Shown in pieces: positions 27,386 through 59,050 of a stretch of 64,000 bases of DNA (the stretch's first letter is position 1; the number at the start of each line of letters is the position of its first letter). Where the stretch lies: contig OZ024753.1 of assembly GCA_964016885.1 (NCBI GenBank), positions 20,832,001 through 20,896,000 on the forward strand. Direction: 5' to 3'. Source of the stretch: Eledone cirrhosa (taxonomy: Eukaryota). The position numbers were made by a program, and so were the translations under genes. The notes below the pieces were generated by a model that worked only from the letters and a program-made list of their open reading frames with translations, was not told where the DNA came from and made no database searches.

Positions 27386-27429
27386 AGAGACTCCACATTT
27401 TAAACACCAATTAAATTTATTACTATAAT

Positions 27430-28032
27430 GGTTTCTTATATAGGCACAAGGCCAGCAATTGAGGGGGAGGGGAAAATCGATTAAATCAACCCCAGTACGT
27501 CACTGGTACTTTATTTTATCGACCCCATAAAGATGAAAGGCAAAGTTAACCTCAGAACGCAAAGGGCCATAACTCTATGCTGCAAAGCATGTTATCTGAC
27601 ACTCTACCAATTCTGTCAATCCACTGCAAATATATTATAATTATAATAATAATTGTTTCTACTTTTGGTACAAGGCCAGCAATTATCCCAGTGTATTACT
27701 GGTACTTTATTTTATCGACCCCATAAGGATGAAAAGCAAAGTTAACCTCGGTGGGATTTGACCTCAGTCCGTAAAGGGACGTAACTGTGCTGCAAAGCAT
27801 GGCGTCCGACCTTCTACCGATACTGCCTCTGATTTAGAAACAAGACCAACAATTATGGGAGGGGGAGGGAAAGTTGATTAAGCCCCAGTGAGTTACTGGT
27901 ACTTTATTTCATTGACCCTATAAAGATGAAAGGCAAAGATAACCTTAGTTGGTTTTGAAATCAGAACGTAAAGGGTTGTAACTATATGCTGCAAAGCATT
28001 TTGTCTGACACCCTACTGATTCTGCCAATCCC
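27430..28032 (-). mobile_element. Three head-to-tail SINE family A copies
   Basis: ctggtactttattttatcgacccc...aaggcaaagttaacctc repeated near 27500, 27700 and 27895. Confidence 0.85.
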
Positions 28033-29000: not shown

Positions 29001-29015
29001 CACGTATATATGTAT
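28766..29015. repeat. Compound (GA)/(GT)/(TA)/(TATG) microsatellite
   Basis: Direct reading. Confidence 0.95.
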
Positions 29016-30085
29016 GTTTTCTCTTTCTCTTAATTTCGATTATATTTTTGACTGGCCATCTTCCTGGTGGCAAGGTTGTAAAAGAAAATAAATTCTCATC
29101 CCTTTAATCGTAAGAATGTTTTCAAAATTTTGAAGGTGCCAACTATCGCAGCCATTTGTAGTCTATGAATTAGGGAGCTGTGCTCTTTGTCCACAAATCC
29201 AAGTTCAGTTATACTTTGCTCCAAGTGGGTTGGTATATAACCTGTAGCTCCAATAATAATGGGTATGAAGCTGAAGGTTTATCTTGGATACTGGATCTGC
29301 AAACCCCTCATCAATGGTCCGTAGAGGCCCTCCTTCTCCTGTATTTGTCTTACAACGTAGACAAGTGGGCAGCTGATCTCTACAACACATCACGTTTTCA
29401 ATGTGTGGTCCCAAACAACAATATCAGGCTGGTTGTGCTTTAATTTGGTGGCAGTTTTTATTTTCAGGTTCAACCAGTATTCTTTAGTGCCATCTATCTC
29501 AACATATTCTTCCTCAACTGTTTTTAATTTTTGTTTTCCTAAGTGCACTCCAGATGGTTCTAGCTGTCACATCGTATCTCATTGGGAGGTAGTAACAAGA
29601 CAACATTCTTTCACAGTTGGCAACAATGTGGCTAACATCTTCGATCTTTGTTTTACATAGCCTACATTTATTGTCGACTGATGACCCTACTCTTTTGTGT
29701 AGCAGATATTTGGTAGGGATTTCTTGTTCCTATATTGCATAGAGATATCCTTCCAGGTGGGATGTAATAAATTTGTCAGAACTCCATGCCATGCTTTTTG
29801 AATGATTTATCCCCTCTATGGTCTATGTTTTTCGTCTCAGGTACCCAGGCACACCTTTCTCTGTAAATTGGTCCATTTTTTTATCATGTTCAAACATTTA
29901 ATAAGATCTTCCAATGTTCCTAGGAGAGAGATTTATATCAGGCCTTATTCCATATCTATCCTCCAGATCAGTGGCTATCCTAATATTATTTCCTTCATGC
30001 TCATAGACGTGGGCAAAATGATTGCTGACCTTTTTCTTCTGTTGAAGATGTTGCTTCAGTGTTACTATCCAATTCTCGTATAATG
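29016..30085 (-). mobile_element. RLE-type (R4/Dong/NeSL-like) non-LTR 3' fragment, decayed
   Basis: HLEGYLYAI*EQEI, CCHC knuckle (EDVSHIVANC), HNQPDIVVWD...VEISCP endonuclease motif. Confidence 0.85.
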
Positions 30086-30399: not shown

Positions 30400-31372
30400 A
30401 ATTTCCTAACTAGTTGTTCTTTCTGTTCCTTTGAAGCCCAGCTTCTCAAGATCTGTATTGTGGCAGTTACTAGCATATCCCAGTGCCCCCAATAATCGCA
30501 GGTATAAATCTGAATGTATAGTCAGGGTTGAGTATCTGCAGATTTCTCATCAGTTCTGCATAAATATTCTCCTTTTCGCTAATCTTCGATATTATATTAC
30601 CATCTGCTGGGCAGCTAATTTCCACTACTGTGTATGCCTTCTTTTCCCTGTCCCATATCATAATATCTGGTCTGTTATGCCTGCATTTTATTGGGGTTTT
30701 TACTGGAACATTCCACCAGTACTCTTTCATATTATGTATGTGTAGGTCTTCCACATTGCTGTAGCTTTTAATGTGTTTATTGTCGGGGCTATCTTTTCTA
30801 TGGATTGCATTGTACAGTGTTTTGGCCACTACATCATGCCTCATAGGTAGAGAGTACCGCGATGACATCTTTGGACAGCTGCTGATGACATGGGTGATAT
30901 CCTCGATGTTAGTTCTGCAGAGTCTGCACATGTTATCACATCTAGGTGTTTTGCCTGCATCCCTATCTTTTTTGTGAATCAGGGATTTCATGTTAATCTC
31001 CTGTTCTTGGATTGCACAAACATATCCTTCAAAGTGGGAGCCAATATAGCGGTTGTTGGTCCAAGATAGACTACTTTCCTTATCTATATTACTCTCACTC
31101 TGGAGCTTCCTGGCAACATATCCATGCATGATATTTTGCTGATAAGCATGCAGTTTTTCATCCACGGATTCACTGCGGTACTTGGGCAATTTCCCTGGGT
31201 GTGTTTTTGATTATCACACAAGAAATATCTTTCATGATCTTATTTGTCTCATGCAGACAGACTTGCTCAATAGATGGGCTCCTATGCTTAGAGGTTCGAA
31301 AATGATCTCAGAGGGATATGATGCGACACTCAAATGCTCTCTGGACTGATGTTAGACCTCTGCTTCCCTGCT
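30400..31372 (-). mobile_element. Second, more diverged RLE-type non-LTR 3' fragment
   Basis: ORF 30470..31189: AIQEQEI, CRLCRTNIEDITHVISSC, RHD, HNRPDIMIWD, VEISCP, IIGGTG. Confidence 0.9.
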
Positions 31373-31383
31373 TATGTATATAT

Positions 31384-32004
31384 GTTATCTCTTTCTCTTA
31401 ATTTTGAGTATATTTTTTTTTGACCGGCCACCTTCCTGGTGGCAAGGTTGTAAAAGAAAAGAAATTGTCATCCCTTGAATCGCAAGAATGTTTTGCAAAT
31501 TTTGAAGGTGCCAGCTATCACAGCCATTTGTAGACTATGAATTAGGGAGCTGCGCTTTTTGTCCGCAAATCCAAGTTCAGTCATACTTTGGTCCAAGCGG
31601 GTTGGTATATAACCCGTAGCTCCAATAATGATGGGTATGATGTATATGAAGCTAAAGGTGTATCTTGGATACTGGATTTGTAAACTCCTCATCAATGGTC
31701 CGTAGATGTCCTCCTTCTCCTGTATTTTTCTGACAATGTTTACATCAAGTGGGCAGCTGATCTCCACAACAGAACACGTTTTCAATGTGTGGTCCCAAAC
31801 AACAATATCAGGCCGGTTGTGCTTTAATTTGGTGGCAGTTTTTATTTTCAGGTTCTACCAGTATTCCTTAGTGCCATCTGTCTCAATATATTCTTCCTCG
31901 TTTGTTGTTAATTTTGTTTTCCGAAGTGCGTTCCAGATGGTTCTAGCTATCCCATCGTGTCTCATGGGGAGGTAGTAGCGAGATGACATTCTTTCGCAGC
32001 TGGC
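31384..32004 (-). mobile_element. RLE-type non-LTR 3' fragment, same family as 29016-30085
   Basis: ORF 31468..31785 (VEISCPLD, PIIIGATG); 3' UTR matches 29016-29100. Confidence 0.9.
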
Positions 32005-32247
32005 ATGTATGTATGTATGTATGTGTGTATGTGTGTATGTGTGTATGTGTGTATGTATGTATGTATGTACATACGTATGCATGTAAGTGGGTATGTACAT
32101 GTATGTACATATGTAGATAAACATGTGTGTGTGTGTTTTAAAAAGAAATATATTCGTCAACAATAACTTAGATATTTCAGTAATGTTCAAAAAGAAATAT
32201 TCAGTCATTTATATGTAAGAGAAAATATATTTATGGAGAAGTCTTTG

Positions 32248-34687: not shown

Positions 34688-34970
34688 GGAAATTCTAGTT
34701 TACTTGAAGCATTGCGTAATGAGGTATAAACGTTTGGAGTTAGAAGGCCAAAACAATGCAGGTATGGATATAGAATATAAATACAAATGCAAAAGATATT
34801 GCTAACAATTAGTCTTAAATTTCGAGATAATATCTCTTCTTCGGAGGGAAGTAAAGGGGTTAATCCAGTGTTCTAATTAGCTTGCCAAGTCATGTTGACA
34901 GGAAATGGTATAGAAATTCCATTCTATTTCTAATGTCAAAGAGTGAAGGTTAGGTGGATAAAGAGTTGTC

Positions 34971-36189
34971 ATCATCATCATCATCATCACCGTTTTACGT
35001 CCGTTCTTCCACGCTAGCATGGGTTAGACGGGTTGTCCTGTTGTGGGCAGTGTCTGGTCGGCTGACCATGCCTTGCTCATACAGGAACTGATTTGGCTTG
35101 ATTTCTACAGCTGGATGCCCTTCCTAACACCAACCTCATTTACAGTGAGTGCTGGGTGCTTTTTCGTGGCGCCTACACGTCCACTTTACAGTGTGGGCTG
35201 GGTGCTTTTTTGCCGTGGCACCTCCACGACCACCTTGCGGTGGGGGGTGTGGGGGCATATTGTCTATATGCTTCAGCTTGTACCCATGGGAGGTCGGGTA
35301 CTCTGTATTACTGCGTGACGCCAGAAGTCACGGTCGTGTGTCATTGTCTTTGAGAGGTGTAATTGGGTAAGGTCGGCTTTTATCACCTCATCCCAGGTCA
35401 TCTTGGGTCTCCCCACTCTGCGGTTTCCATCAACTTCTAGTGCTCTGCACCTTTTTATGCAGCTGTCATCCTTCATACGCATCACATGTCCATACCAGCG
35501 CAACCGCCTCTCCTGCATACAGCATTTGATTCCTCTTATGCTCAGTCTCTCTCTCAATTCATTTATGCTTTGTCGTTCACGTATATTATTGTTACACATC
35601 CATCGGAGCATGCAGGCTTCGTTTCTCTCTAATCTACGTAAGTCTTCCACCTTCAGCGCCCAGGTCTCGCTACCATGCAACATCGCTGTTCGGATACACG
35701 CATCATACAGTCTGCCTTTCATTCTGAGGGAGAAGCCTTTTGCAGCTAGCAGTGGTAGTAGTTCCCTAAACTTCTTCCATCCCGTTCTTACCCTAGTTAT
35801 TGCACTTTCTGAACACCCACCTCCGTTGCTAATTCGGTCACCTAGGTAGCAGAAGCTGTCTACTGTTTCTACAGGGCCCTCCCAGAGATTGGTGGTACTT
35901 GTTTCCTGTGGCTCTTTGCTGTTTGCTGTCTCAGCACAGCTGCTGCATGTGAATCCTACATTCTTAATTAAGCTTCCTGAGATACCGCTACATCTCTTGT
36001 GTACCCATTGTTTGCATTTGGGGCAGAGAATGGAGTTCCTACCTACACCTTTCCTACATACTGAGCAAGGCCATTTCCCTGAGGGGATCTGGGTTCTGTT
36101 TTCTCATCTACTTACAAGGACCTTAGTCTTTGTCGTGTTGACTTTGAGACCCTTTCATTCTAGTCTCTGCTTCCAGGTTTGGAATTTAT
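34971..36189 (-). mobile_element. 5'-truncated RTE LINE nested in the Penelope-like element
   Basis: ORF 35273..35722 (KGRLYDACIRTAMLHGSETW, RRLRWYGHV); Cys/His finger near 35990-36080; (ATG)n tail at 34971. Confidence 0.92.
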
Positions 36190-36436: not shown

Positions 36437-36945
36437 TTAAGTTATAAATTGGGTGTTGAGTTCTAGTCTATTATTGATTGGTGGTTGTGTTTTGTCTATA
36501 ATCAGTGCTTCCTTAATTTTAAGATTGCTGAGGTTTCTTTCCTTAGCTTCTATCCTAACTGTTATGGTTTTGTCTGTGTTTTTGCATTTCACTAGGTGTT
36601 TCTTAAATGAGGAAGCGTTAATATTGAGGTGTTCTTTTATTCTTATGTGAAGTGGTCTGGTGGTGCTACCTATGTAGAAATTGCTGCATTTGTCACACTC
36701 TAATCTGTATATGACGTAAGCCTGGTGGCATAGGTCTGTGTCATTGATGGGGCAGTTGGCTAGCCTGCAGCGGCTGTCATGTCTGGTGGAGTGTCTTTTG
36801 GTTAGCTGTCCATGTAGAGAAGGTCCTTAGTGGGCTAGCTGGATATCTAGTCCCTCTCATCTGATAGCTCTGCGGATGGCTGTTGTTGTTTCATCACTGA
36901 AGTGTGGGAGCTTCAGGAAGCAGGTGTTAGTGCCTTGGGTGTGGT
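36437..36945 (-). pseudogene. Penelope GIY-YIG endonuclease C-terminus (not in the ORF track)
   Basis: Manual translation: CRLANCPINDTDLCHQAYVIYRLECDKCSNFYIGSTTRPLHIRIKEH...LKIKEALIIDKTQPPINNRLE; two upstream stops. Confidence 0.88.
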
Positions 36946-37348
36946 GAACTCAACACCCAATTTTTGACATGATATAGCACCTAGCCCCACTCTTACACCT
37001 CCACGTACCATCACACATACACGCACGCTTACACCTCCACTTATTCTCTCTCACACACACACATACACACATAAAGACCAGTTTTAACATGATAGAGCAT
37101 CTAGCCCCCACATTTACATATAAACATATCCTCTCTCACACACACACACACACACATGCATGCTTACTCCTTCACATATTCTCCCACACACACTTAGACA
37201 TACATGTCCAAACCCTTTTTAAAGGGAGACAACTCTTTATCCACCTAACCTTCACTCTTTGACATTAGAAATAGAATGGAATTTCTATACCATTTCCTGT
37301 CAGCATGACTTGGCAAGCTAATTAGAACACTGGATTAACCCCTTTACT

Positions 37349-37386
37349 TCCCTCCGAAGAAGAGATATTATCTCGAAAATTAAGGA
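37349..37386 (+). ncRNA. Candidate minimal hammerhead variant in the Penelope terminal repeat (mirror copy ~34812-34848, minus strand)
   Basis: CCU-CCGAAGA-A-GAGAUAUUAUCUC-GAAA-AU-UA-AGG; U4C substitution and short stems. Confidence 0.45.
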
Positions 37387-37485
37387 TATTCACATAAATT
37401 GAAGGTAAAAGACTAATTGTCAGCAATATCTTTTGTATTTATATTCTATATCCATACCTGCATTATTTTGGCCTTCTAACTCCAA

Positions 37486-37673: not shown

Positions 37674-38588
37674 ATATATATATTTGAAAAAAAGGAAAAA
37701 GATGACTTAACTTGTAGTTCTAAACAATTTGATTTAATTTTACATTATAGTAACAAAATGGCCCTGCGTTGCTCTGGATTTGCTCTAGGGTTCTTATATA
37801 TTTGATATATATTTATCCCTCTCGAGCCTTGTGAAGTAAATACGTTTGTTTATATTTTGTTATTGTGTATGCAAAAATATCTGTACACGAATATATGTAT
37901 TAAAATAACAGATTAAAGTTTAAGCAAAGAATCGCTGCTTTCACCCTTAACAGGATCTTCTGAAACTAAAATAATAAATCTGTGAACGCAGAAGTAAATA
38001 TTTCGAAAAACGTTACACACTTTATATATATACACACACTATATATACATACACACACACATATACATACACACCGCGTCATAATGACATAATGCAGACA
38101 GCCAGGCATACAGACAGATATTATAAGGGCGAAACGTTATATCTATGTATCTATCTAAAAAGAGAAAGACTAAGAATTATAGAGAGAGATCGCTAAATCG
38201 CCTAATGCGGTCCCTAGGGCATGGAAAATTTGAAATTATTTTTGCTCAGAACACTCAATAGGACCATAAAGTATTACATGTGTAAAGTCTGAAAACAATC
38301 AGTTGGGTGGTTCTCGAGTTTTAGTGATTGGACAGACAGATAATTTTCTTTTTATTTGCCACCAGGGCATCAAAAAGTGGGACAAGTACAATGGGGGGAG
38401 TTTACATAACAAGGCGTCCTCAATAAGGAGGAGGCAATAACAAAATATAAAAATAAAATAAAATATAACAAAATAAATTTTATAACAAAATCCTCCATAG
38501 GGAGGAGGCGCCTTGGGGGGTCGCACACACCCCCGAAAAAAAAGTGTGCAACCCTTCTCCTCAGGAGCACAGAGAGAGGTTGCTCCCT

Positions 38589-41500
38589 TGATATTTCATC
38601 TTCCTCACCTATAGTCTGATGTAGAGTGAAGGCCCATTCACACGGGCCATTCTAGCCACTTTCACCCATCTTTCATAAAAACGGCTGGGGTGCAGCACCT
38701 CTCTCTCCATCCTGATCCTTCTTCCGAAATGATATCGGAAGAAACGGACCAGTTGTTGGCCAGAGAGAAAGGTGTCTGACCTCAGTCCTTTCAGACGCGT
38801 CCACCATACAACCTCTTTCGCCATGGCTATTACGCACAGAAACACCGCCTCTCCTTCATTTTTGAAGAGGGGAGGCGGCTTGATCGTTACAATAGACTCG
38901 GTGGTCAACCGGATCGGTCCCACCCTTGAAAGCAGTTGTTCGACATAACCCCACAGATCGGCAATGCCCGAGCAGTGTACCAATGCGTGTGCAACGGTTT
39001 CCTCGTCGCACACGCATCTGAGACAGATCTTTTTCGAGGGGTCCCTACCCGGGCGCCCGTGTCTGTAGATCCTTTCTCGAACGGGCAGAGCCCTTCGGTA
39101 GCACTGCCAGGCCAGGGACCTCTGGAAGTTATCCATGGGTCCCGGGCTGAATGTCCTACCGAACAGGTTGGCCAGTTCGTCTTCCTCCATGCCTAGGGCT
39201 TCTCCGAGGGCGTCGTCGCACCTGCTAACCACCAGCCCTCTATGGAATGACGAGGTGGATTCTCCACTGACAGCTGGGTCCGCCTGCCAGAGAGCCGTGA
39301 GCACCTGGGCACACTCGGTGTGCCAGGCGCCCAGTTTTCTCGGTCTTTGCTTGACCCAGGATTGCAGCTCGGTGAGTGAGATGAGTCTGGGAAAAGCTCG
39401 CCTCACAAATGGGGCCCACACCGGTTGACCGGTGAGGAATACCTGGAGGTACCGTAGCCTTAATGCGGGTTTACGTATCATTAGCCACGGCATCCCCAGC
39501 CCTCCTTTCGAAGGGTGTTGACAGCAGATGGATCTCCTCACCATCGAAGCCCGCTTCTTCCAAAGGAATTGGAAGAGTGCGCGCTCCATTTTGTGCTACC
39601 GAAGTGCTCTGCCCGTTCGAGAAAGGATCTACAGACATGGGCGCCCGGGTAGGGACCCCTCGAAAAAGATCTGTCCCAGATGCGTGTGCGACGAGGAAAC
39701 CCTTGGTAAGGCACAATGGTCAGGCGATAGTAGATGACGGACGCTATATAAGTGTTCGCCACCTCCGCCCGACCTTTCAGGGACAGTTTGCACTCGGCCC
39801 ACTTCTGGGTCAGTGCAAACACCCTGTTCATCACCTCACCCCAGTTCTTCTCCACATGGAGGTCTGGTCCGAACCAGACCCCGAGCAACTTCACCGGGCC
39901 CTCTGTCCAGCGCCCGACGACGCCATCGGAGGGCATCGATCTTCCCCTCCACGTGCCGAGTTGCAGACCGATCGACTTGTCCCAGTTCAGCTTAGCCCCT
40001 GTAAACCTTTCGTACTCCTCCAGTAAGGTGCCGATTGCCCCGATTTCCGAGGCCGTCGACACCATTACAGTTACGTCCTCGGCGTAGGCCGACACCGCTT
40101 TCCGCAATCCATGTTCCAACGGGATGCCCTGCAACAACTCCAACTTCCACAGCAGTGGCTCTAGAGTCATTACATATAGAAGGGAGGAGAGAGGGTACCC
40201 TTGTCGGATGGACAGCGCGATTTCGAACGGCTCCGTAAGGTAGCCGTTCACCTTGACCCTAGAGCAGATGCGGCTGCTGTGCATGGCATTGATCCAGCCC
40301 CTGAAAATGTGTCCGAAGCCTGCCGCCGCTAGCACCGCATCCAGGTAACCATGGTCGACCTATCGAACGATTTAGATTGATCCAAGTTGATTAGGGCCCC
40401 ACCAAAGCCGGGTTCATTGCCAACCCTCTCTATGATGTATCGCATGAGGTGGAGGTTGTCGTGGATGGACCTGGATGGGATAGCACATGTCTGCGCATCT
40501 CCCACCAGGTTGCCCACGTCAAGCGCCAACCTCTTTGTTAGCACCTTGGCCAAAATCTGTAACTCTGTATTTAGCAGAGTTATGGGCCTGAAATTATTTA
40601 TATCGTCCCCCTTGTTCTCGTCCTTCCTCACTAACATGACTACGCCCTTGATCACAGCCCAGGGAATTCTCCCGTTCTTTTGCCAGTTGCAGTAGACCAC
40701 CTCGAGGAGATCGGAGAACAAGTCCGGCATAGCTAGATATAGTTCGTATGGAAGACCATCGAGACCCGGGGATTTGCGTTTGCCGCATTGGCTCAGCACG
40801 TTCTCTATCTCAGCGGCTGAAATCGGCTCCTCGCAGGACTTCGCCTCCCTGTCCGAGAGACGCGGCAGGCCGTCGAGGTATGGACCGAAGTCCACTTCCC
40901 CAACCGTCTCCCCGCCCCTTCCGAACAATCTGGCAAAGTGCTTTTGAAAAGCCTCACACATCTGCTTAAGTTCAAGGATCACCCGTCCATCCTGGTCTCG
41001 CAAAGACCGGATAGTGGATCTACTCCCTCTTTTGGCTTCTACTCCCTCTTTTGGCCCAGCTAACAGCTTTCGTCCCCTCGTTTCCCAGAGCACGTATTTT
41101 GCTTCGGACGATGCAGCCTTCGTGTTTCGCGTCGAAGAACTGGCCCAGGGCCGTTCTCGACGCTAGCACTCTGGCCACGTCGCCGCTTCTAATTGCCTCT
41201 TCTACACTATCTACCAACTCCCTTTCCTTCCTATTTCTATTTGAGGCTAACTCCTTACTAAATTCTATAGAGACTACTCTAATCTCTCTTTTGAGAGATC
41301 CCCACCACCTGCTGTTGACGATGGCGCTCATCAACCGCTCCTTAACTAAAGTGCTAATCCGGTTCCTGTAAGCCCTACTTGCCGGTAAGGACAAGTTGAG
41401 CTTCCAGTAACCGGGTCCCTGTCTATGCGTTCTGTCAAGGTTGACCATGCATCTCACTAACTTGTGGTCTGAATAGCCAACCATGCGTATTTTTGGACAA

Positions 41501-44995: not shown

Positions 44996-45129
44996 ATTGT
45001 TTCTGAAGAAGAGAGCGAAATGGATGTGGGACATCAAGACCAATTAAATGGAGTTACATAACTGCTATCAATTAGTCGCTATTTTGATTATCAAGATCAA
45101 TCAACCTTCTGAAATGATTGTAAAACAAT
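44996..45129 (+). ncRNA. Candidate type I hammerhead ribozyme with 101-nt stem II region
   Basis: AUUGUUU-CUGAAGA-[AGAG...UUCU]-GAAA-UGAUUG-UA-AAACAAU; stem I is a perfect 7 bp. Confidence 0.72.
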
Positions 45130-45944
45130 TAACTGATTATATATAATTGTATTCCTATATTCCATAAACCAACCATCAACCTATATTCCTGTGATCACCA
45201 CCTGCCACTGGTATGGGGAAAACAAACGTTATTAAGCTGCAGTCATCATATTACATAGTTTTTGTATAATGAAATTTATTATCATCTGCGTGACTCCACC
45301 ACATTATGTAATAGGCTATGTTTTACTCTTTCTTTGCATTTCCCTGGCTATAAACCCCACAAAATGAACCACCAACATAAAATCTAAGCCCTAAAATCCA
45401 TATAACCAAACTGTAGAAAATTAAATATAGGTTTCCAAAATAAACATCAGCAGCCTATTAGGTATATTATTTATCACAGCAAGTGAATTGCATGCTGAAC
45501 AGTTTTTAATTCTTTATGAATACATAAAAATTATGCTGTTAGGAAAGAAAATCTTTGAAACTCTAAAAATTCTCATTTAAAGAAAATTAAAAAGCCACAC
45601 TATTTCAATGACAGGAAAGCCAAACTGACAAAATAAAAATTGTTGTATAACTTGTCTGTATGGAATTGGGGATTACTAAAATGTCTGACAAAGAGTGCAA
45701 TTTAAAATAGTTGCTCAAACAGCTTTTCAGTGCAGCACCAAATTAAGGGGGTCGGCTGCTTGGAGGTAATTCAGGCAGGACCAGAAGGGCCAGGCATCAT
45801 ATAAAATAGGGTTATACACATCTTTATAAGAACAATTGTATATTTACAAGCAAACATTTTATATCTAGATCAGTTTTATAGCTGATAACTTTGTTATAGT
45901 TGTTATATTTATATACTGGTGACTCGATATTGGTTTATATAAAA

Positions 45945-46192
45945 AGGTGGTGAATTGGCAGAGTCATCAGAATGTTGGATAAAGTGGTTTGTTGTATTCA
46001 TTCCATCTCTCTACTCTCTCAGTTCAAATTCCACTGGGGTCAACTTCACCTTTCATCCATTCATGATTGGTAAAAATAGTACCAGTGTACAAGGGTCAAC
46101 TCTTCCTCTATATCTTTCTCTCACTCTCTATTTTACTCTGGAAGAAATTGCTTCAGGCCTGGAGAGGAGATGGGCTCTGCCACGTATAAGAA
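45945..46192 (+). mobile_element. Old SINE family A copy
   Basis: ggtggtgaattggcagagtc...agttcaaattccactggggtcaacttcacctttcatcc. Confidence 0.7.
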
Positions 46193-46339
46193 TACTCTAA
46201 GAAATACTGTCAATATGGTACCCCTACAATTCCCACAGGAGTTACTGTAACATACAAACATGCTATATAATGGTTTATACATATTTTAGGAGAGTGTTAT
46301 CATTACTATCATTGTTATGATTGACATGCTTATTAAATA

Positions 46340-46620
46340 AGCTTAGTAGTTAGAGCATTGCACTTGCAATCGGGAGGTTGTGAGTTTGATTCTCAGACCA
46401 GGTGATGCCTTTTGTCCTTGAGCACTTTATTTCACATTGCTCCAGTTTACTCTGCTGTAGGAATGAGTTGCAATGTCACTGGGTCCAAACTTTATTGACC
46501 ATTGCCTTTCTCTTGGACAAAATCAGTGGAGATTAGTATGCATGGGCAACTGCTGGTCTTCCACAAACAACCTTGTCCAGGCTTGTGCCTCAGAATAGGT
46601 ATCCAGTTGTTAAATCAAAT
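46340..46620 (+). mobile_element. tRNA-derived SINE family B
   Basis: gcttagtagttagagcattg...gtgagtttgattc...tgtccttgagcactttatttcac. Confidence 0.7.
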
Positions 46621-46744
46621 GAGTTCCTAGTTCATTCAATTAGTGTGTAATAATCAAATTACACATCAAAATTTCAGCCACAACCTTCAAATTAATTCTG
46701 AGGGAGTTGTAGGGGCATACAGTGCTTCTTGGGTATTTTAAGCC

Positions 46745-46998
46745 TGGCAGAGACCATCCTTGTATAGGCTTGAATACAGATTTCTTCCAGAGAAGGATAG
46801 CGAGAGTGAGAGAAAGAAAGTGAGAAAGATATATAGAGTAAGAAGCAACCCCATTACTAGAGTGTTACTTATTTTATCAACCTCGAATGAATAAAGGCAA
46901 AGATGACCTCAGTGGGTTTTGAACTCAGAGAACAGAGAGCCAGAACAAATACCACAAAGCATTCTATCTGACATTCTAATGACTCTGCCAGTGAGGCA
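46745..46998 (-). mobile_element. Old SINE family A copy, inverted relative to 45945
   Basis: Reverse-complement similarity including the CT-rich tail. Confidence 0.7.
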
Positions 46999-47279
46999 TC
47001 TTTTAAATTTCTCATGAATCATTGTTGTTTAGATTTGTGATTTTCTAAGTCCTCCTCACCAACAATTCTTTGCATAACACAGTTGTCTGTCCTTTACCTG
47101 CTAAACTATAGTTCCATCTTAGTTAATAGTTAAAAGTGGATTTGAATGAAAAAACATTAGAAAAAGTGGTACAATCAATGTACAAAGCTGAATTTTCGGC
47201 TTTTAAATGTTGAATATATAAATATAAAGGATGATATGCTCAAGCACAGATGCTATAAAAATAGCTTATAAAATAGGGT

Positions 47280-47523
47280 GAAGCACCCAGCCCACACTGT
47301 AAAGTGATCGTGTAGGCGCCACGGAAAAAAAGCACCCAGCACTCACTGTAAATGAGGTTGGTGTTAGGAAGGGCATCCAGCTGTAGAAATCAATCCAGAT
47401 CATCTCCTGTATGAGCAAGACAAGGTCACCCGACCTGGCACTGCCAACAACAGGACAACTTGTCTAACCCATGATAGCGTGGAAGAATGGACATAAAACA
47501 GTGATGATGATGATGATGATGAT
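47280..47523 (+). mobile_element. RTE 3' UTR fragment with (ATG)n tail
   Basis: Reverse complement of 34971-35210. Confidence 0.85.
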
Positions 47524-48454
47524 ATATAAACTTTGGGAGGGTCATGTTGCCAATAAAAACACATGCACCTGTTGGTTTTCACTTCAATTTATTATAAATT
47601 TCCGGTTGGTTAGTTCAATAACTGGATGGTTGTTTATATATTGTCAAAGGTCTGGATGTTGTGTCAACACAAAAACAACGTTAACAAGACCGTTATTGTT
47701 CCAACCAGTCTATTCACCTTTTATACCATAAATATACACCTTCACTACACATATATAGAACACTCTATAGAACGAATGCAAGCAATCATCGAATGTCCTA
47801 TGTGTAAACAATGTACTCGGAAAATAGAGCCAACAATAAAGACAACATCCAGTAGACAAGACCATCGGATTCCAAACTTGTAAAAATTACATTCATAAAA
47901 ACTGAGCCAATCAGGAACTAAATGTTTATATTAGAGCTTAGTGTCTACTAACATTTGTTCAACAAGTACATAATTTGTTTATAGTTATAGCATACATCCA
48001 TACACTAGGAGTAGTTTAAAAGTATAGCAAAACAAGTAGTGTCTTCATCATCTTCCATTTCTGACTTTGTTGTGAGTACATATGTTGTTATCATGTCTGT
48101 GAAGAAATAGCAAACAACATTGACAATAGAACAGAGAAGTAAGATAGCACCTGGATATGGTATTTTGCCAGATATATCATATCAAGATTACAACAGTTTT
48201 ATCGATTGAATGACATAGAATTCTGTAAACATGTTATATTTCAGTATTTATGATCAAATCAGTTATCTGAACAAAATACTATTTCATTCAGACAATCTAG
48301 GTTTGATTGTAAGTAATATATTTTCAACAAGTTAACAAGAAACAACTGCCATGCCAATGTTGCTTTCATCTTTTTGCTTCAGGTATGATACACATAGCTT
48401 TCTATTGATATGATGAGTAAATATCTGTTTAAGTACATCAAGTACCTGTGATGA

Positions 48455-48712
48455 AATGTGGCTTACTGGTTACAGAATTGGATTCAGTCTTAAGTTGCGA
48501 GTTTGATTCCCAAACCAGGCGATATGTTATGTCCTTGAGCAAGACATTTTATTTCACATTGCTGTTTCTGTCAGGAGGTGCTTATCCCTGGTTTCATTGG
48601 TGTTGAGAGACTGTTTTGCTCAAGTACACATCACAACAGCCTGTCCAGGAATCAACTGATGACATTATGATTGTACGACTAGCATCCTAACCATTAGGTC
48701 ATGTGGCCTCAC
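48455..48712 (+). mobile_element. SINE family B derived sequence, possibly two fused fragments in opposite orientation
   Basis: tgtggcttactggttac...gagtttgattccc...gtccttgagcaagacattttatttcac. Confidence 0.55.
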
Positions 48713-48992
48713 TTGTCTGGAGTACTGTTATAATGTTTTGTTACTGCAGTCTTGCTGAAAGAAAACAGTTCTATATTTTACATCTTCAATTCTATTTAAA
48801 TATTCTTTTAGCATTCTAGTTTTATGAATTGCCACAACACATGTAACACCCTATTTCCAACATATTTATAGGGATGTCTATTAAGAACTAGACCATCTGT
48901 GACCCGTTGGGTCACGTTTCTATTCAAAATTAAGTTTTGAATATTTAAAATATACACAGATATGTATATAATATAACATGAAATTGGAAGGC

Positions 48993-49028
<36 letters not shown>

Positions 49029-49629
49029 TCAGAGAAAGCGTTAAGCTATACTCAACAAACATTAGGATATACCTTAGTATAATGCCAATTTTGTGTTTGG
49101 GGTGCTAACTATATGTATTTTGTGGAAAGCCAGTTGTATTATTTTAAATGAGATATAATTAAAATTAAAATATATCTCTCTTTCCAAACAATTGTTTCAT
49201 TATAAGTTTTCTACAAGTTGGGAGAATGTGTCCGGTTTATGTAGAAGTCCGCATATTTTTCTGTAAGAACATATGCAGGTGGGCACTTATAAATCATCAG
49301 TGGATGCCCGTCAAACTTTGATATAAGAAAAAATTCCTTACCGCAGTTAGTTTTCATGTCAGCTAAATAATGACCGCCAAATTTGAAATTCCAGCAGTCT
49401 CAGAATGAGGAATTTCACAGCGTCACGAAGCGGAAAAGGGAGGCAATCGCGAAACACAAGAAAGTAAAATAATTTACACGTGGGTTAATTAGTTTTTTCA
49501 ACAATTTCAACCCTGCGTGTTAAGAACTCAATTAGATTTTTTAAAAATAAATGTATGCATGTATTAATTATACACACATATAGATATTTTCTTAGGCTAA
49601 AAACAGAGATATGATACCAAAATAATAAT

Positions 49630-49736
49630 CAAATCCCGCCGAGGTTAACTTTGCCTTTCATCTTTACGGGGTCGATAAAATAAAGTACCAGTAATGTACT
49701 GGGTAATTGCTGGCCTTGTGCCTAAAGTAGAAACAA
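49630..49736 (+). mobile_element. 5'-truncated SINE family A
   Basis: Near-identical to 13244-13349. Confidence 0.85.
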
Positions 49737-49892
49737 TATTTCATAATAATAATAAATACGGAAAGTTACGCTTAAAAGGTATCTGGAAAAATATAAATCT
49801 CTGGCCAAATCAAGAGTAAAATATTCAATACATATATATATATATATATATGGGCCTTCCAGGTTCATATGAATTATCTAAGAATGAGCTTT

Positions 49893-49948
<56 letters not shown>

Positions 49949-50027
49949 TTGTATTTGGTTGTGCGTGTGTGTGATATATACGTATTTGTATGTGTATAAT
50001 TGTATGGCTATGTATGTATGTGTGTGT

Positions 50028-50116
<89 letters not shown>

Positions 50117-50812
50117 TATATGTGTGTGTGTATGTATATGTGTGTGTATATGTGTATATGTGTGTGTGTGTGTATGTATTTGTGTATGCGTATGTATGTG
50201 TTTATGTATTTGTATATGTATATTTATGTGTGAGAGTGTGTGTATGTATTTATTTTTACGTATGTATGTGTACGTGCATTTGTGTGTATTGCTTATCACG
50301 CGTGTTTTTTCATTTATTTGTTGCCTGCATCGCTGTCAACTTTTGTCTTTATTATTTTTTATATATATTTTTTTTAATATTTATTTGCGTGTGTGAATAT
50401 GTAGAGGTGTGTGTATATTTTTCTAATATTGTGCATGCATATGTATGCATGTATATATGTGTGTATGTATGTGTTTGTATGTACGTGTGTATATACGTAT
50501 TATTGTGTGTATGTATGTATGTATGTATATGTATGTGTGTATGGCTATGTATGTGAATGTGTATGCATATATATATATATATATATGTTTATATTTTTAT
50601 ATATATATATGTGTATATATATGTGTGTGGTTGTATATATGTATGTGTATGTATGGATATGTTGATATTTATGTGTGTATGTATGTGTATGTATATATAT
50701 ACACATATGTATGTGTATATGTGTGTGTGTATGTATGTGTGTATGTATATATATATATAAATATGTGTGTGTATGTATATAATCGTATGTGTGTGTGTTT
50801 GCATGTGTGTTT
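49893..50812. repeat. Long compound (TA)/(TG)/(TATG) microsatellite region
   Basis: Direct reading. Confidence 0.95.
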
Positions 50813-50912
50813 TTATTTTATTTTTCCTTTCCTTCTTCCTTCTCCAGCCTCACTTTCATATAGATTGCATTTTTGTTTTTTAAAATCCAATTCAATAAAT
50901 AGACCAGGATTT

Positions 50913-50972
50913 TTTCATTCTGATGATTGAAAGCAAAACTTTTTGCTTTTAAGAAACCACTGGTAAATGGAA
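50913..50972 (+). ncRNA. Type I hammerhead ribozyme with fully canonical core
   Basis: UUUCAUU-CUGAUGA-UUGAAAGCAAAA-CU-UUUUGCUUUUAA-GAAA-CCACUGG-UA-AAUGGAA; all three stems pair; predicted cleavage after A50965. Confidence 0.88.
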
Positions 50973-51080
50973 TAATTACCTTATTTGTTTATTACATGAC
51001 TATTAAGCTCTGTTACCTACATAGAGCACACTTTTTTCCTGGACTTTTCTGACGGAATTACTTCATTCACACACACACAC

Positions 51081-51112
<32 letters not shown>

Positions 51113-51215
51113 ACTAGGAATTGATCAACATATATATAAATAAATATAAACATGAAAAATCACAGGAGATAATTTTTACAAGCGTGTATACATATATATG
51201 TGTGTGTGTGTATAC

Positions 51216-51268
<53 letters not shown>

Positions 51269-51353
51269 CACAGAAGATAATTTTTACAAGCGTGTATACA
51301 TATATATGTGTGTGTGTGTATACATACATACATATATATATACATATATATAT

Positions 51354-51394
<41 letters not shown>

Positions 51395-51828
51395 TGTCTG
51401 TGGCCTATATACACCGGTCACAGACACACACACACACATAAATATATATATTCACACAAACACACTTAGAAACCCTTTCTATTTAGCAGGATACAGTAAT
51501 GCTGTATTCGTTTCTTTAAAGTCAGTGGTTATAATTTCATTCAACAACACCACCAGCTCTCTCTTTCTCTCTCTCTCTTTCAATCTACTCTCTCACAACC
51601 ACTATCTCTTTCTCTATATTCTTCTCTCTCTCTGTTTATGAAGGTACCCAGAAAACCCCATATCTCGGGAACCCGTGCAGCGATTTACGCGAAACTTGTT
51701 TCATCACATTTGTATTCGCATTTCAGGGTCAACTTCCTCTCAAAGTATTTTCCCATTATCTGCCCTTTTGGCTGTACTACATTACAGACAAGAAAGCAAT
51801 CACAGAGTTTTAGTAGTATATAGATATG

Positions 51829-54040
51829 TTTCTTTTATTTGCCACCAGGGCATCAAAAGTGGGACAAGTACAATGGGGGGAGTTTACAAAACAAGGCGTC
51901 CTCAATAAGGAGGAGGCAATAACAATATATAAAAATAAAATAAAATATAACAAAAAATAAAATTTATAACAAAGTCCTCAATAGAGAGGAGGCGCCTTGG
52001 GGGGTCGCACACACCCCCGAAAAAAGTGTGCAACCCTTCTCCTCAGGAGCACAGAGAAGGGGTGCTCCCTTGGTCTTTCATCTTCCTCACCTATAGTCTG
52101 ATGTAGAGTGAAGGCCCATTCACACGGGCCATTCTCGCCACTTTCACCCATCTTTCATAGAAACGGCTGGGGTGCAGCACCTCTCTCTCCATCCTGATCC
52201 TTCTTCCGAAATGATATCGGAAGAAACGGACCAGTTGTTGGCCAGAGAGAAAGGTGCCTGACCTCAGTCCTTTCAGACGCGTCCACCATACAACCTCTTT
52301 CGCCATGGCTATTACGCACAGAAACACCGCCTCTGCTTCATCTTTGAAGGGGGGAGGCGGCTTGATCATTACAATAGACTCGGTGGTCAACCGGATCGGT
52401 CCCACCCTTGACAGCAGTTGTTCGACATAGCCCCACAGATCGGCTACGCCCGAGCAGTGTACCAATGCGTGTGCAACGGTTTCCTCGTCGCACACGCATC
52501 TGGGACAGATCTTTTTGGCGGGGTCCCTACCCGGGCGCCCGTGTCTGTAGAGCCTTTCTCGAACGGGTAAAGCCCCTCGGTAGCACTGCCAGGCCAGGGA
52601 CTTCTGGAAGTTGTCCATAGGTCCCGGGCTGAATGTCCTACCGAACAGGCTGGCCAGTTCGTCCTCCTCCATGTCTAGGGCTTCTCCGAGGGCGTCGTCG
52701 CACCTGCTGCGTACCAGCCCTCTATAGAATGTTGCGGTGGAGTCTCCACTGATAACCGGATCCGCCTGCCAGAGGGCGGTGAGCACCTGGGCACACTCAG
52801 TGTGCCAGGCGCCCAGTTTTCTCGGTCTTTGCTTGACCCAGGATTGCAGCTCGGTGAGTGAGACGAGTCTGGGAAAGGTTCGTCTCACAAACGAGGCCCA
52901 CACCGGTTGTCCGGTGAGGAATACGTAGAGGTGCCGTAGCCTTAATGCGTGTTTACGCATCATTAGCCACGGCATCCCCAGCCCTCCTTTCGAAGGGTGT
53001 TGACAGCAGATGGATCTCCTCACCATAGGAGCCCGCCTCTTCCAAAGGAATTGGAAGAGCGCGCGCTCCATCTTGGTGAGGGTTTCCCTTGGGCAGGGCA
53101 CTACGGTCAGGCGGTAGTAGATGACGGACGCTATGTAGGTGTTCGCCACCTCCGCCCGACCTTTCAGGGATAGTTTGCAACTGGCCCACTTCTGGGTCAG
53201 TGCAAACACCCTGTTCGTAACCTCCGCCCAGTTTTTCTCCACCTGGAGGTCCGGTCCGAACCAGACCCCGAGCAACTTCACCGGGCCCTCCGTCCAGCGT
53301 CCGACAACGCCATCGGAGGGCATCGGTCTGCCCCTCCACGTGCCGAGTTGCAAACCGATCGACTTGTCCCGGTTCAGCTTAGCCCCTGTGAACTTTTCGT
53401 ACTCCTCCAGTAAGGTGCCGACCGCCTCGATTTCGGAGGCCGTCGACACCATTACTGTCACGTCATCGGCGTAGGCCGACACCGCTTTCCGCAATCCCGG
53501 TTCCAAAGGGATGCCCTGCAACAACTCCAACTTCCGCAGTAGTGGCTCGAGAGTCAACACATACAGAAGGGAGGAGAGAGGGCACCCTTGTCGGATGGAC
53601 CGCGCGATTTTGAACGGCTCCGAGAGGTAGCCGTTCACCTTGACCCTAGAGCAGATGCGGCTGCTGTGCATAGCAGTGATCCAGCCCCTGAAAACGGGTC
53701 CGAAGCCTGCCGCCGCTAGCACCGCATCCAGGTAACCATGGTCGACCCTACCGAACGCCTTAGATTGATCCAAGTTGATCAGAGCCCCACCAAAGCCGGG
53801 TTCGTTCCCAACCCTCTCTATGATGTATCGCATGAGGTGGAGGTTGTCATGGATGGACCTGGACGGGATAGCGCATGTCTGCGCATCTCCCACCAGGTTG
53901 CCCACGATAAGCGCCAACCTCTTTGCTAGCACCTTGGCCAAAATCTGTAACTCTGTATTTAGCAGAGTTATGGGCCTGAAGTTACTTATTTCGTCCCCCT
54001 TGTTCTCGTCCTTCCTCACTAGCGTGACTACGCCCTTGGT
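51829..54040 (-). mobile_element. 5'-truncated L1/Tx1-type LINE, same family as 38343-43266
   Basis: High identity to 38343-40650 including the 3' UTR. Confidence 0.95.
52091..54019 (-). CDS. Uninterrupted RT plus C-terminal zinc-finger part of LINE ORF2 (642 aa, 5' truncated)
   Basis: RPITLLN, LDQSKAF, QGCPLS, YADD, KLLG, GGLGMP, CPRC...ETVAHALVHC. Confidence 0.9.
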   Translation of the reverse strand: MRKDENKGDEISNFRPITLLNTELQILAKVLAKRLALIVGNLVGDAQTCAIPSRSIHDNLHLMRYIIERVGNEPGFGGALINLDQSKAFGRVDHGYLDAVLAAAGFGPVFRGWITAMHSSRICSRVKVNGYLSEPFKIARSIRQGCPLSSLLYVLTLEPLLRKLELLQGIPLEPGLRKAVSAYADDVTVMVSTASEIEAVGTLLEEYEKFTGAKLNRDKSIGLQLGTWRGRPMPSDGVVGRWTEGPVKLLGVWFGPDLQVEKNWAEVTNRVFALTQKWASCKLSLKGRAEVANTYIASVIYYRLTVVPCPRETLTKMERALFQFLWKRRAPMVRRSICCQHPSKGGLGMPWLMMRKHALRLRHLYVFLTGQPVWASFVRRTFPRLVSLTELQSWVKQRPRKLGAWHTECAQVLTALWQADPVISGDSTATFYRGLVRSRCDDALGEALDMEEDELASLFGRTFSPGPMDNFQKSLAWQCYRGALPVRERLYRHGRPGRDPAKKICPRCVCDEETVAHALVHCSGVADLWGYVEQLLSRVGPIRLTTESIVMIKPPPPFKDEAEAVFLCVIAMAKEVVWWTRLKGLRSGTFLSGQQLVRFFRYHFGRRIRMEREVLHPSRFYERWVKVARMARVNGPSLYIRL

Positions 54041-54074
54041 CAGTAAAAATAGAATAGATGGTCATTGATGTCCG

Positions 54075-55885: not shown

Positions 55886-56147
55886 GAAACCAAATAGTTA
55901 CCTGGTAATCTTTGTTTTTTTGTTGTTGTTTCTTTCATCCTAAAATGTTAGGACTTAAAATTTCCTTGAATATCTGTAAGTTATGTTAGTTATATTTACA
56001 GACTCGTCCTAGCCATGTTAGTGTGGAAGATGAATGTTAAACGATGATCACCCGATTCCACAGTAGTTAATATCTCACACCTAATAACAAGTCAATACAA
56101 TAATAATATAATTATTATATCATTAGAATCATTGTATCAGATTAACA

Positions 56148-56352
56148 GTAATTGGTAGAGCATCAGACAACATGCTTTGTAGCAAATAGTTACGGCCCTT
56201 TATGTTCTGAGTTCAAATCCTGCTGAGATTAACTTTACTTTACATCTTTACGGGGTCAATAAAATAAAGTACCTGTAATGCACTGGGGTTGATTTAGTCT
56301 CCTTTCTCCTCCCAAAAAATTGTTGGCCTTGTGCCTAAATCAGAAACCATTA
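56148..56352 (+). mobile_element. SINE family A copy
   Basis: ctgagttcaaatcctgctgagattaactttac...aataaaataaagtacc. Confidence 0.8.
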
Positions 56353-56614
56353 TACCATTAATTATAATCATAAATTGATACCATTAGTTCCTCATAAGCA
56401 ACATTTTTAGCAGTAATAAATAAAGTTTCAAAAAGCTGGTACATTGCAGTAGAACTACACTTATTATATATCTCACAATGCTTTATATTGACTTTACTTT
56501 ATTTTTACCAGTAGTTTTCCCTCGTTCTTTTCTTTAATTGTTGGTATTAATTAATCTAACAAAGACACCGGTTAATGTCCTGGCTCTAGAGAATATAACA
56601 CTTAACTATACATG

Positions 56615-59050
56615 TCATCTTCACACGTCCATTTTCCACATTAACACGAGTTGCCCCATTATGAGACAAGTTAGATCAGGTGACCATGCCTTGCTCAATC
56701 AGAAAGATTCTGGCTTGTTTTTTTACAGCTGTATGCTCTTCATAATGCAAACCACATTTACAGTGTGTACTGGGTGCTTTTTATCATGGCACCAAGAAGA
56801 CCACTTTACAGTGTGGACTGGATGTTTTTTATCATGGCACCAAGACAACCACTTTACAGTGTGGACTGGATGCTTTTTATCATGGCATCAAGACGACCAC
56901 TTTACAGTGTGAACTGGGTGCTTTTTATTGTGGCACCAAGACAACCACTTTACAGTGTGGACTGGATGCTTTTTATCATGGCACCAAGACAACCACTTTA
57001 CAGTGTGGACTGGATGCTTTTTATCATGGCACCAAGACGACCACTTTACAGTGTGAACTGGGTGCTTCTTATTGTGGCACCAAGACAACCACTTTACAGT
57101 GTGAACTGGGTGCTTCTTATTGTGACACCAAGACAACCACTTTACAGTGTGAACTGGGTGCTTTTTATTGTGGCACCAAGACAACCACTTTACAGTGTGA
57201 ACTGGGTGCTTCTTATTGTGGCACCAAGACAACCACTTTACAGTGTGAACTGGGTGCTTTTTATTGTGACACCAAGACAACCACTTTACAGTGTGAACTG
57301 GGTGCTTCTTATTGTGACACCAAGACAACCACTTTACAGTGTGAACTGGGTGCTTCTTATTGTGGCACCAAGACAACCACTTTACAGTGTGAACTGGGTG
57401 CTTTTTTATTGTGGCACCAAGACAACCACTTTACAGTGTGAACTGGGTGCTTTTTATTGTGACACCAAGACAACCACTTTACAGTGTGAACTGGGTGCTT
57501 CTTATTGTGACACCAAGACAACCACTTTACAGTGTGAACTGGGTGCTTCTTATTGTGGCACCAAGACAACCACTTTACAGTGTGAACTGGGTGCTTCTTA
57601 TTGTGGCACCAAGACAACCACTTTACAGTGTGAACTGGGTGCTTCTTATTGTGACACCAAGACAACCACTTTACAGTGTGAACTGGGTGCTTCTTATTGT
57701 GACACCAAGACAACCACTTTACAGTGTGAACTGGGTGCTTCTTATTGTGGCACCAAGACAACCACTTTACAGTGTGAACTGGGTGCTTCTTATTGTGGCA
57801 CCAAGACAACCACTTTACAGTGTGAACTGGGTGCTTCTCATTGTGGCACCAAGACAACCACTTTACAGTGTGAACTGGGTGCTTCTTATTGTGACACCAA
57901 GACAACCACTTTACAGTGTGAACTGGGTGCTTTTTATTGTGACACCAAGACAACCACTTTACAGTGTGAACTGGGTGCTTCTTATTGTGACACCAAGACA
58001 ACCACTTTACAGTGTGAACTGGGTGCTTCTTATTGTGGCACCAAGACAACCACTTTACAGTGTGAACTGGGTGCTTCTTATTGTGACACCAAGACAACCA
58101 CTTTACAGTGTGAACTGGGTGCTTCTTATTGTGACACCAAGACAACCACTTTACAGTGTGAACTGGGTGCTTCTTATTGTGGCACCAAGACAACCACTTT
58201 ACAGTGTGAACTGGGTGCTTCTTATTGTGGCACCAAGACAACCACTTTACAGTGTGAACTGGGTGCTTCTCATTGTGGCACCAAGACAACCACTTTACAG
58301 TGTGAACTGGGTGCTTCTTATTGTGACACCAAGACAACCACTTTACAGTGTGAACTGGGTGCTTTTTATTGTGACACCAAGACAACCACTTTACAGTGTG
58401 AACTGGGTGCTTCTTATTGTGACACCAAGACAACCACTTTACAGTGTGAACTGGGTGCTTCTTATTGTGACACCAAGACAACCACTTTACAGTGTGAACT
58501 GGGTGCTTCTTATTGTGACACCAAGACAACCACTTTACAGTGTGAACTGGGTGCTTCTTATTGTGACACCAAGACAACCACTTTACAGTGTGAACTGGGT
58601 GCTTCTTATTGTGGCACCAAGACAACCACTTTACAGTGTGAACTGGGTGCTTCTTATTGTGACACCAAGACAACCACTTTACAGTGTGAACTGGGTGCTT
58701 TTTATTGTGGCACCAAGACAACCACTTTACAGTGTGAACTGGGTGCTTCTTATTGTGGCACCAAGACAACCACTTTACAGTGTGAACTGGGTGCTTTTTA
58801 TCATGGCACCAAGATGACCATTTTACAGTGTGAACTGGGTGCTTCTTATTGTGGCACCAAGACAACCACTTTACAGTGTGAACTGGGTGCTTCTTATTGT
58901 GACACCAAGACAACCACTTTACAGTGTGAACTGGGTGCTTCTTATTGTGGCACCAAGGCAACCACTTTACAGTGTGAACTGGGTGCTTCTTATTGTGGCA
59001 CCAAGACAACCACTTTACAGTGTGAACTGGGTGCTTTTTATCATGGTACA
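56615..59050 (-). repeat. RTE 3' UTR (56615-56750) whose internal 48-bp unit is expanded to ~48 copies (56750-59048)
   Basis: Unit ACCACTTTACAGTGTGAACTGGGTGCTTCTTATTGTGRCACCAAGACA; flank matches 34995-35140. Confidence 0.95.

Follow-up and report, generated by a model that had tools for sequence, protein, structure and literature searches.

A type I hammerhead motif in a high-copy repeat at a locus of Eledone cirrhosa

The hammerhead motif and its surroundings

The window, by which we mean the whole 64-kb stretch of Eledone cirrhosa DNA analysed here, is repeat-rich animal DNA, and at 50913-50972 on its plus strand it carries a type I hammerhead with an intact core and three stems of which stem I is open. 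The motif lies within a high-copy repeat placed between low-complexity tracts, and the features of the locus are listed below in window coordinates (X1 and X7 are two of the sequencing runs aligned to the repeat).

49830-50811, no strand: TG/TA low-complexity tract upstream of the repeat, read from the sequence, which may be part element and part target site
50812-51068, plus strand: high-copy repeat unit in its minimal extent (at least 257 nt, 30% GC), with depth in 29 of 29 bins in both X1 and X7
50894-50993, plus strand: extended stem I, with the proximal 7 bp and 16 further pairs in the MFE pair list
50913-50919/50966-50972, plus strand: proximal stem I, 7 bp in the fold
50920-50926, plus strand: core C3-A9, CUGAUGA in the sequence, with position 7 (50924) a free position
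50927-50937/50942-50952, plus strand: stem II, 11 bp with a 4-nt loop ACUU (pair probabilities 0.66-1.0 in four contexts)
50953-50956, plus strand: core G12 A13 A14 A15.1, GAAA in the sequence
50956-50958/50962-50964, plus strand: stem III as folded in the monomer, 3 bp with a 3-nt loop ACU
50964, plus strand: U16.1 in the sequence, which pairs with A15.1
50965, plus strand: A17 of a GUA triplet, with cleavage predicted 3′ of A17 from its position in the fold
51069-51112, no strand: (CA)n followed by (TA)n, the probable 3′ end and insertion target, a role suggested by the behaviour reported for Penelope-like elements (PLEs; PMC11167929, PMC8557442)

The hammerhead is the MFE fold of 50880-51000. 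Stem I comprises 23 pairs altogether, interrupted by a U.U mismatch, a 2-nt bulge (50977-50978) and a 2x2 loop, and the fold of 50894-50993 that includes all of them has an MFE of -20.6 kcal/mol (z -2.8, with 5 of 500 shuffles equally good). The three-way fold makes up 33%, 28%, 16% and 12% of the sampled monomer structures in four widening contexts, and for the shorter segment 50900-50985 the MFE structure retains stem II alone. We note that the continuation of stem I to 50894/50993 had not been described in the initial annotation of this sequence.

That annotation had called the motif a canonical hammerhead, and the core, GAAA, stem III, A50965 and the 7-bp stem I all lie where it had placed them, while stem II, given there as 11-12 bp, has 11 bp and not 12. 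The core is indeed canonical but the periphery is not: stem II is closed by U10.1-A11.1 where G-C is usual, and the metazoan features of a G10.1-C11.1 pair, a 4-bp helix II and contacts of loop 1 with loop 2 are all missing. The Rfam hammerhead covariance models, which had been proposed as a check, do not recognise the site either, with no hammerhead family matching anywhere in the window at the gathering score, nor in 50800-51080 at E values up to 10 (where there were three chance-level matches). The non-canonical periphery and the lack of an Rfam match lower the case for calling the motif canonical, not the case for calling it a hammerhead.

A descriptor that also checks the stems matched 50913-50972 on the plus strand and nothing else on either strand of the window, and found no match, even with looser stems, when 24301-64000 was simulated 300 times under a Markov model (23.82 Mb altogether). 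The core letters by themselves are not enriched (8 matches in the window with 4.41 expected), and it is therefore the stems rather than these letters that make the site significant. By its core and stems the motif at 50913-50972 is a real type I hammerhead, for which cleavage is predicted. Pattern loci were also collected from metagenome, prokaryote-genome and viral collections (five, two and three, respectively); none of these ten has both stems, stem I reaching 2 bp at most, and we regard them as chance matches.

The initial annotation had also stated that no retroelement ORF lies nearby, and this does not hold, as a 656-codon frame with an RT domain is found at 52091-54061 on the minus strand, 1.1 kb from the ribozyme. 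The frame is part of an L1/Tx1-like LINE that is unrelated to the hammerhead and has two minus-strand copies in the window (51822-54061 and 38338-41451), 92-94% alike; the first has kept the open RT frame and lost its 5′ part, and the second, a longer copy, carries a frameshift. Among named proteins, the closest homologue of this frame comes from Argonauta hians, with 62% identity across 99% of the query, which points to an octopod as the probable host. A protein with 62% identity (P0007) is labelled as coming from a bacterial MAG and is probably animal DNA in that assembly. We considered the neighbouring LINE as the carrier of the hammerhead and rejected it, as it lies on the opposite strand, the match between copies (51822-54042) stops at 51822, and a hammerhead segment is missing from the second copy.

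No sign of a coding partner was recovered beside the motif. A six-frame Pfam search of 45001-49832 and 51391-52094 (12 frames) gave no RT or GIY-YIG domain and one chance-level match, and two PLE proteins used as tblastn queries revealed no trace of an RT or GIY-YIG domain next to the hammerhead copy. Target-site duplications are unreadable in the microsatellite, with only (TA)n among the 25 longest matches listed. Two smaller structures were seen near the 3′ side: a 7-bp hairpin followed by a T run (51007-51037) inside the repeat unit, 40 nt downstream of the predicted cleavage site, and just 3′ of the element a 108-bp tandem duplication (51128-51372) made of TA/TG tracts and a short unique spacer.

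Copies and variation of the repeat family

Four of nine listed sequencing runs (X1, X7, X5 and X6) were aligned to 50812-51068 at 80% likeness. This interval was matched by 1,941 of 16,285,364 contigs in X1 and by 7,678 of 12,467,656 reads in X7, a RAD library, with most matches 90-99% alike and most X7 reads 90-95% alike. X5 provided 19 contigs at low depth and X6 a single contig covering 50828-50880 only, without the ribozyme, and both runs are too thin to show distribution across species. The interval is a minimum with the true ends beyond it, as 163 X1 contigs extend past its ends, and the loose ends of X7 reads upstream of 50816-50821 are TG-rich and by eye resemble the end of the TG/TA tract in the window.

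Copy number was estimated in two ways. The share of RAD reads gives 3,000-9,400 copies (for an assumed genome of 2-5 Gb and with RAD sampling biased), and summed depth divided by 23.4, the depth at the private letter 50998, gives 4,000-29,000, summed depth being no true copy number. The bias of RAD sampling and the nature of summed depth limit our claim to thousands of copies, which is what the family probably has. Self-BLAST of the 64-kb window found no second copy of the hammerhead repeat, and neither X1 nor X7 has a head-to-tail joint within the 257 nt, where the joints of a longer unit would be hidden. The five joints listed for the family are all strand switches (four in the RAD library only, two at an AATT site and one backed by a contig) and may be ligation chimeras. 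X7 read ends also pile up at 50889, 50977 and 51059, and we considered these as element ends or cleavage products; they fall on AATT sites and are more plausibly ends produced by RAD digestion.

Variation within the family follows the hammerhead pattern, in which the core is kept and N7 and loop II vary. No variant falls in the invariant core, G12 A13 A14 A15.1 included, among the 40 of 82 variants listed (29 of 32 for X1), and since the three X1 variants outside this list comprise a pair of C>T changes and a single T>A, none of the G or A positions of the core varies at 3% in X1 (by a hand tally in which one A>G could hide if the single-contig variant at 50884 is outside the X1 tally). It should be noted that contigs drop rare variants and that the alignment step favours similar sequences. 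Eight sites listed within 50913-50972 vary at 3% or more in X1 (50924, 50937-50940, 50950, 50970 and 50927), and family variation clusters at the tip and loop of stem II (50936-50941). The free position 50924 (N7) is G in 48% of X1 depth and in 43% of X7 reads. Among the paired sites, U>C at 50950 converts a G.U pair of stem II to G-C, the variant at 50970 converts a U.G pair of stem I to U-A, and U>C at 50927 (9% in X1 and 16% in X7) breaks the 10.1-11.1 pair, which most copies keep as U-A. Of the eight X1-variable sites listed, four coincide with the eight positions that are free to vary (p 0.008, rising to 0.03 if the other three X1 variants all lay elsewhere), with the site classes defined after the data were seen.

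In the extended stem I, pairing is kept by the variant at 50900 (U.G to C-G), by G>A at 50902 and by the variant at 50979 (G-C to G.U); one at 50978 sits in the bulge. G>C at 50902 (58%) breaks a pair in the register of the window copy, and an extra G after 50984 in many family members could restore it; no two-sided compensatory change was found among the listed variants. The private changes of the window copy (50998, 51030 and 51050) are all outside the ribozyme, and its core is as intact as that of its family. Paralogous copies that conserve the core, whose absence the initial annotation had named as part of what would refute its interpretation, are present in the aligned runs.

Candidate elements and predicted cleavage

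The hammerhead can be compared with several known systems. The hammerheads of PLE terminal repeats (Cervera and de la Pena 2014, PMC4209133), above all those in which helix III is small and palindromic, share with it the type I topology, the CUGANGA/GAAA core and a long helix II, together with a palindromic helix III that favours dimers, U-rich/AU-rich flanks and an occurrence mostly as solo dispersed copies. Helix II is called large in that work at 7-8 bp, whereas the window copy has 11 bp, and it differs further in having no extra nucleotide after A9, a U10.1-A11.1 pair, a 23-pair stem I and no linked ORF that we could find. The alignment in the same paper includes a long bulge-free helix II in Saccoglossus 2, and closing pairs other than G-C in S. 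mansoni 3, D. willistoni and Marsupenaeus. Animal non-LTR retrozymes, as described by Cervera and de la Pena (2020, PMC7229834) and in the preprint of Li, Clavereau and Pollet (2026), share the short AT-rich non-coding repeat, the type I hammerhead, the short helix III, thousands of copies and co-occurrence with PLEs, but no tandem arrangement was seen in the window and its helix II is not the canonical 4 bp. Newt and axolotl satellite 2 and Dolichopoda pDo500 likewise have a short helix III, the option of a double hammerhead, and a conserved core with position 7 and the loops varying, but these are tandem satellites, unlike the solo copy of the window. The intronic hammerheads of amniotes (RECK and others; PMC6155905) share the type I form with an extended stem I, but are reported as single loci conserved across species, whereas the window hammerhead belongs to a repeat family and has no known host gene.

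We favour, at a little better than an even chance, the explanation that the window copy is a 3′ terminal repeat (pseudo-LTR) without an ORF, belonging to a family of Penelope-like retroelements, solo and probably 5′-truncated, lying in a TA/TG microsatellite. Most insertion products would then be truncated ends like this one. The long stem II, the small palindromic stem III and the U-rich 5′ and AU-rich 3′ flanks all point to a PLE end (cf. PMC4209133), as do the CA-rich end that meets (TA)n and the lack of a head-to-tail joint within the 257 nt, and PLEs have been reported to insert into AT-rich and microsatellite DNA (PMC11167929, PMC8557442). Against it, the searches above linked no RT or GIY-YIG remnant to the family, two features of the minimal consensus are missing (the extra nucleotide after A9 and G10.1-C11.1), and a complete stem III together with a long stem I is closer to the retrozymes. 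Such a stem III and a long, well-kept stem I would be expected of a dispersed non-LTR retrozyme monomer, produced when the transcript of a tandem source array is cleaved by its hammerhead, made circular and returned to the genome by a PLE RT, and this is a serious but clearly less probable explanation. A non-coding unit of at least 257 nt with 30% GC would fit it (PMC7229834), monomer fractions across retrozyme families are reported to range from 0 to 1 (bioRxiv 10.64898/2026.07.22.740005), and a mussel carries ~5,000 type I copies that lack the customary tertiary nucleotides (PMC7229834). No tandem copy is present in the window, however, X1 and X7 have no head-to-tail joint (one in a unit longer than 257 nt would be hidden), and stem II, at 11 bp, greatly exceeds the canonical 4 bp. 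The two explanations overlap, as retrozymes have been proposed to derive from PLE terminal repeats as one continuum (bioRxiv 10.64898/2026.07.22.740005). The earlier suggestion of a terminal repeat of a Penelope or retrozyme-like element is thus borne out as far as a core-conserving repeat family and a fitting architecture go.

The remaining alternatives are weaker. A SINE-like element with a hammerhead, such as Schistosoma Sm-alpha, that depends on Pol III for transcription and on a LINE for mobility is distinctly unlikely: the family is short, dispersed and of high copy number, the window is rich in LINE remnants, and SINEs account for 11.6% of the Octopus vulgaris genome (PMC13282606), but no hammerhead segment accompanies the second copy of the neighbouring LINE, the window contains no tRNA, 49501-51100 has no match to simple A- or B-box patterns, and nine T runs of at least four occur on the plus strand, two of these within stem II. 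Runs of four or more would be expected to terminate Pol III. A domesticated ribozyme that regulates a host transcript at this one locus, for which the intact core, the extended stem I and the amniote intronic precedent in RECK (PMC6155905) might speak, is less likely still, as the window copy belongs to a large set of similar copies and has private changes of its own (50998, 51030 and 51050), and no host exon was identified in the 64-kb window. That the site is a chance match or a decayed hairpin repeat without any ribozyme history is barely credible; the lack of an Rfam hammerhead match, the U-A at 10.1-11.1 and the absence of two-sided compensatory changes would suit it, but not the simulations, with 0 matches in 23.82 Mb, nor the hammerhead-like variation of the family.

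Returning to the PLE terminal repeat, the window provides a precedent for an ORF-less PLE end with a hammerhead-like motif in a second PLE family. A GIY-YIG frame at 36437-36826 on the minus strand, 59-63% identical to two longer proteins of RT/endonuclease type, lies inside an inverted structure (36437-37485), and the inverted arm of this PLE fragment carries a minimal hammerhead-like motif at 37354 (plus strand). A copy of the arm without an ORF (34734-34970) has the motif at 34844 (minus strand) and ends near (TA)n, and in both motif copies core position 4 is C rather than U. The hammerhead repeat at 50812-51068 has no similarity to this other PLE terminus, which counts against a PLE end.

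The activity to be expected depends largely on stem III, which is near-palindromic (50956-50964), with eight of nine positions pairing between two copies. The stem III hairpin alone is predicted at +0.4 kcal/mol and its self-duplex at -8.2 kcal/mol, and in three of three contexts the two-strand MFE structure is a double hammerhead in which both cores stay open, at an energy 9 kcal/mol lower than that of two monomers. A 3-bp near-palindromic stem III leads us to expect slow cleavage that depends on dimers, as metazoan type I and PLE hammerheads have been reported to cleave poorly alone and slowly as dimers (PMC4209133; reviewed in PMC6765202). Reported rates vary widely: amphibian motifs with a helix III one or two pairs longer showed 6% and 22% monomer cleavage in an hour, and coral and mussel monomers cleave at ~0.8 and ~0.1 per min (PMC7229834), while one of nine predicted Xenopus dimers cleaved (bioRxiv 10.64898/2026.07.22.740005), and an anole PLE hammerhead cleaved only with protein and was dispensable for insertion in vitro (PMC11167929). 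The GUA triplet occurs naturally in hammerheads and is slower than GUC (PMC1636495).

If transcribed, a lone copy would be cut slowly unless a second copy or a protein helps, and from the folds it would probably cleave weakly, with roughly even chances that cleavage is slow but measurable and much poorer ones that it is fast. A non-G-C pair at 10.1-11.1 would be expected to slow cleavage. The cutting of a host intron transcript by this copy, suggested by the initial annotation, is no more than a possibility, as no host gene or transcript was identified. It is doubtful that the repeat represents an undescribed and abundant cephalopod family of dispersed, non-autonomous retroelements with a hammerhead of a new structural subtype, in which the U-A-closed 11-bp helix II would dock on a bulge of the conserved 23-pair stem I so that single copies cleave efficiently, and thousands of them would cut host pre-mRNAs in cis, or in trans via stem III, or yield abundant circular RNAs.

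Molluscan context and other repeats of the window

Hammerheads in PLE ends and retrozymes are a known class across animals, molluscs included (mussel, limpet, oyster and giant squid). Minimal forms are given for Lottia and Crassostrea in the supplement of PMC4209133, and 235 Rfam hammerhead matches are reported for the giant squid genome (PMC6962438); recently active Penelope-like families are described for Octopus vulgaris, and hammerheads are not mentioned in the main text of that work (PMC13282606). In the literature on octopus and cephalopod hammerheads or ribozymes we found no description of the family presented here, which supplements or repeat libraries may list. What the locus adds, modestly, is a high-copy family missed by Rfam, in which helix II is long and most copies retain the U-A closing pair, and this makes the family a natural test of which peripheral features dimer-type hammerheads need. 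If solo copies are active, those in introns on the sense strand would be under selection and could shape transcripts.

Several other repeats are present in the window. The largest is a 23-kb minisatellite (1403-24331) with ~967 copies of a 24-bp unit. A second tandem array (56750-59041) has 48 copies of a 48-bp unit that resembles the non-tandem sequence at 35131-35245 and other dispersed copies, which suggests that this satellite may have arisen from an interspersed repeat. We also observed a 630-bp duplication (29005-29622 and 31373-32005, 88%), frames at 30470-31854 that by eye look like the end of a non-LTR element that encodes a restriction-enzyme-like endonuclease (with no Pfam match), and a short SINE-like interspersed repeat whose copies at 27410-28031, 46869-46990, 49629-49757 and 56110-56368 are 69-95% alike.
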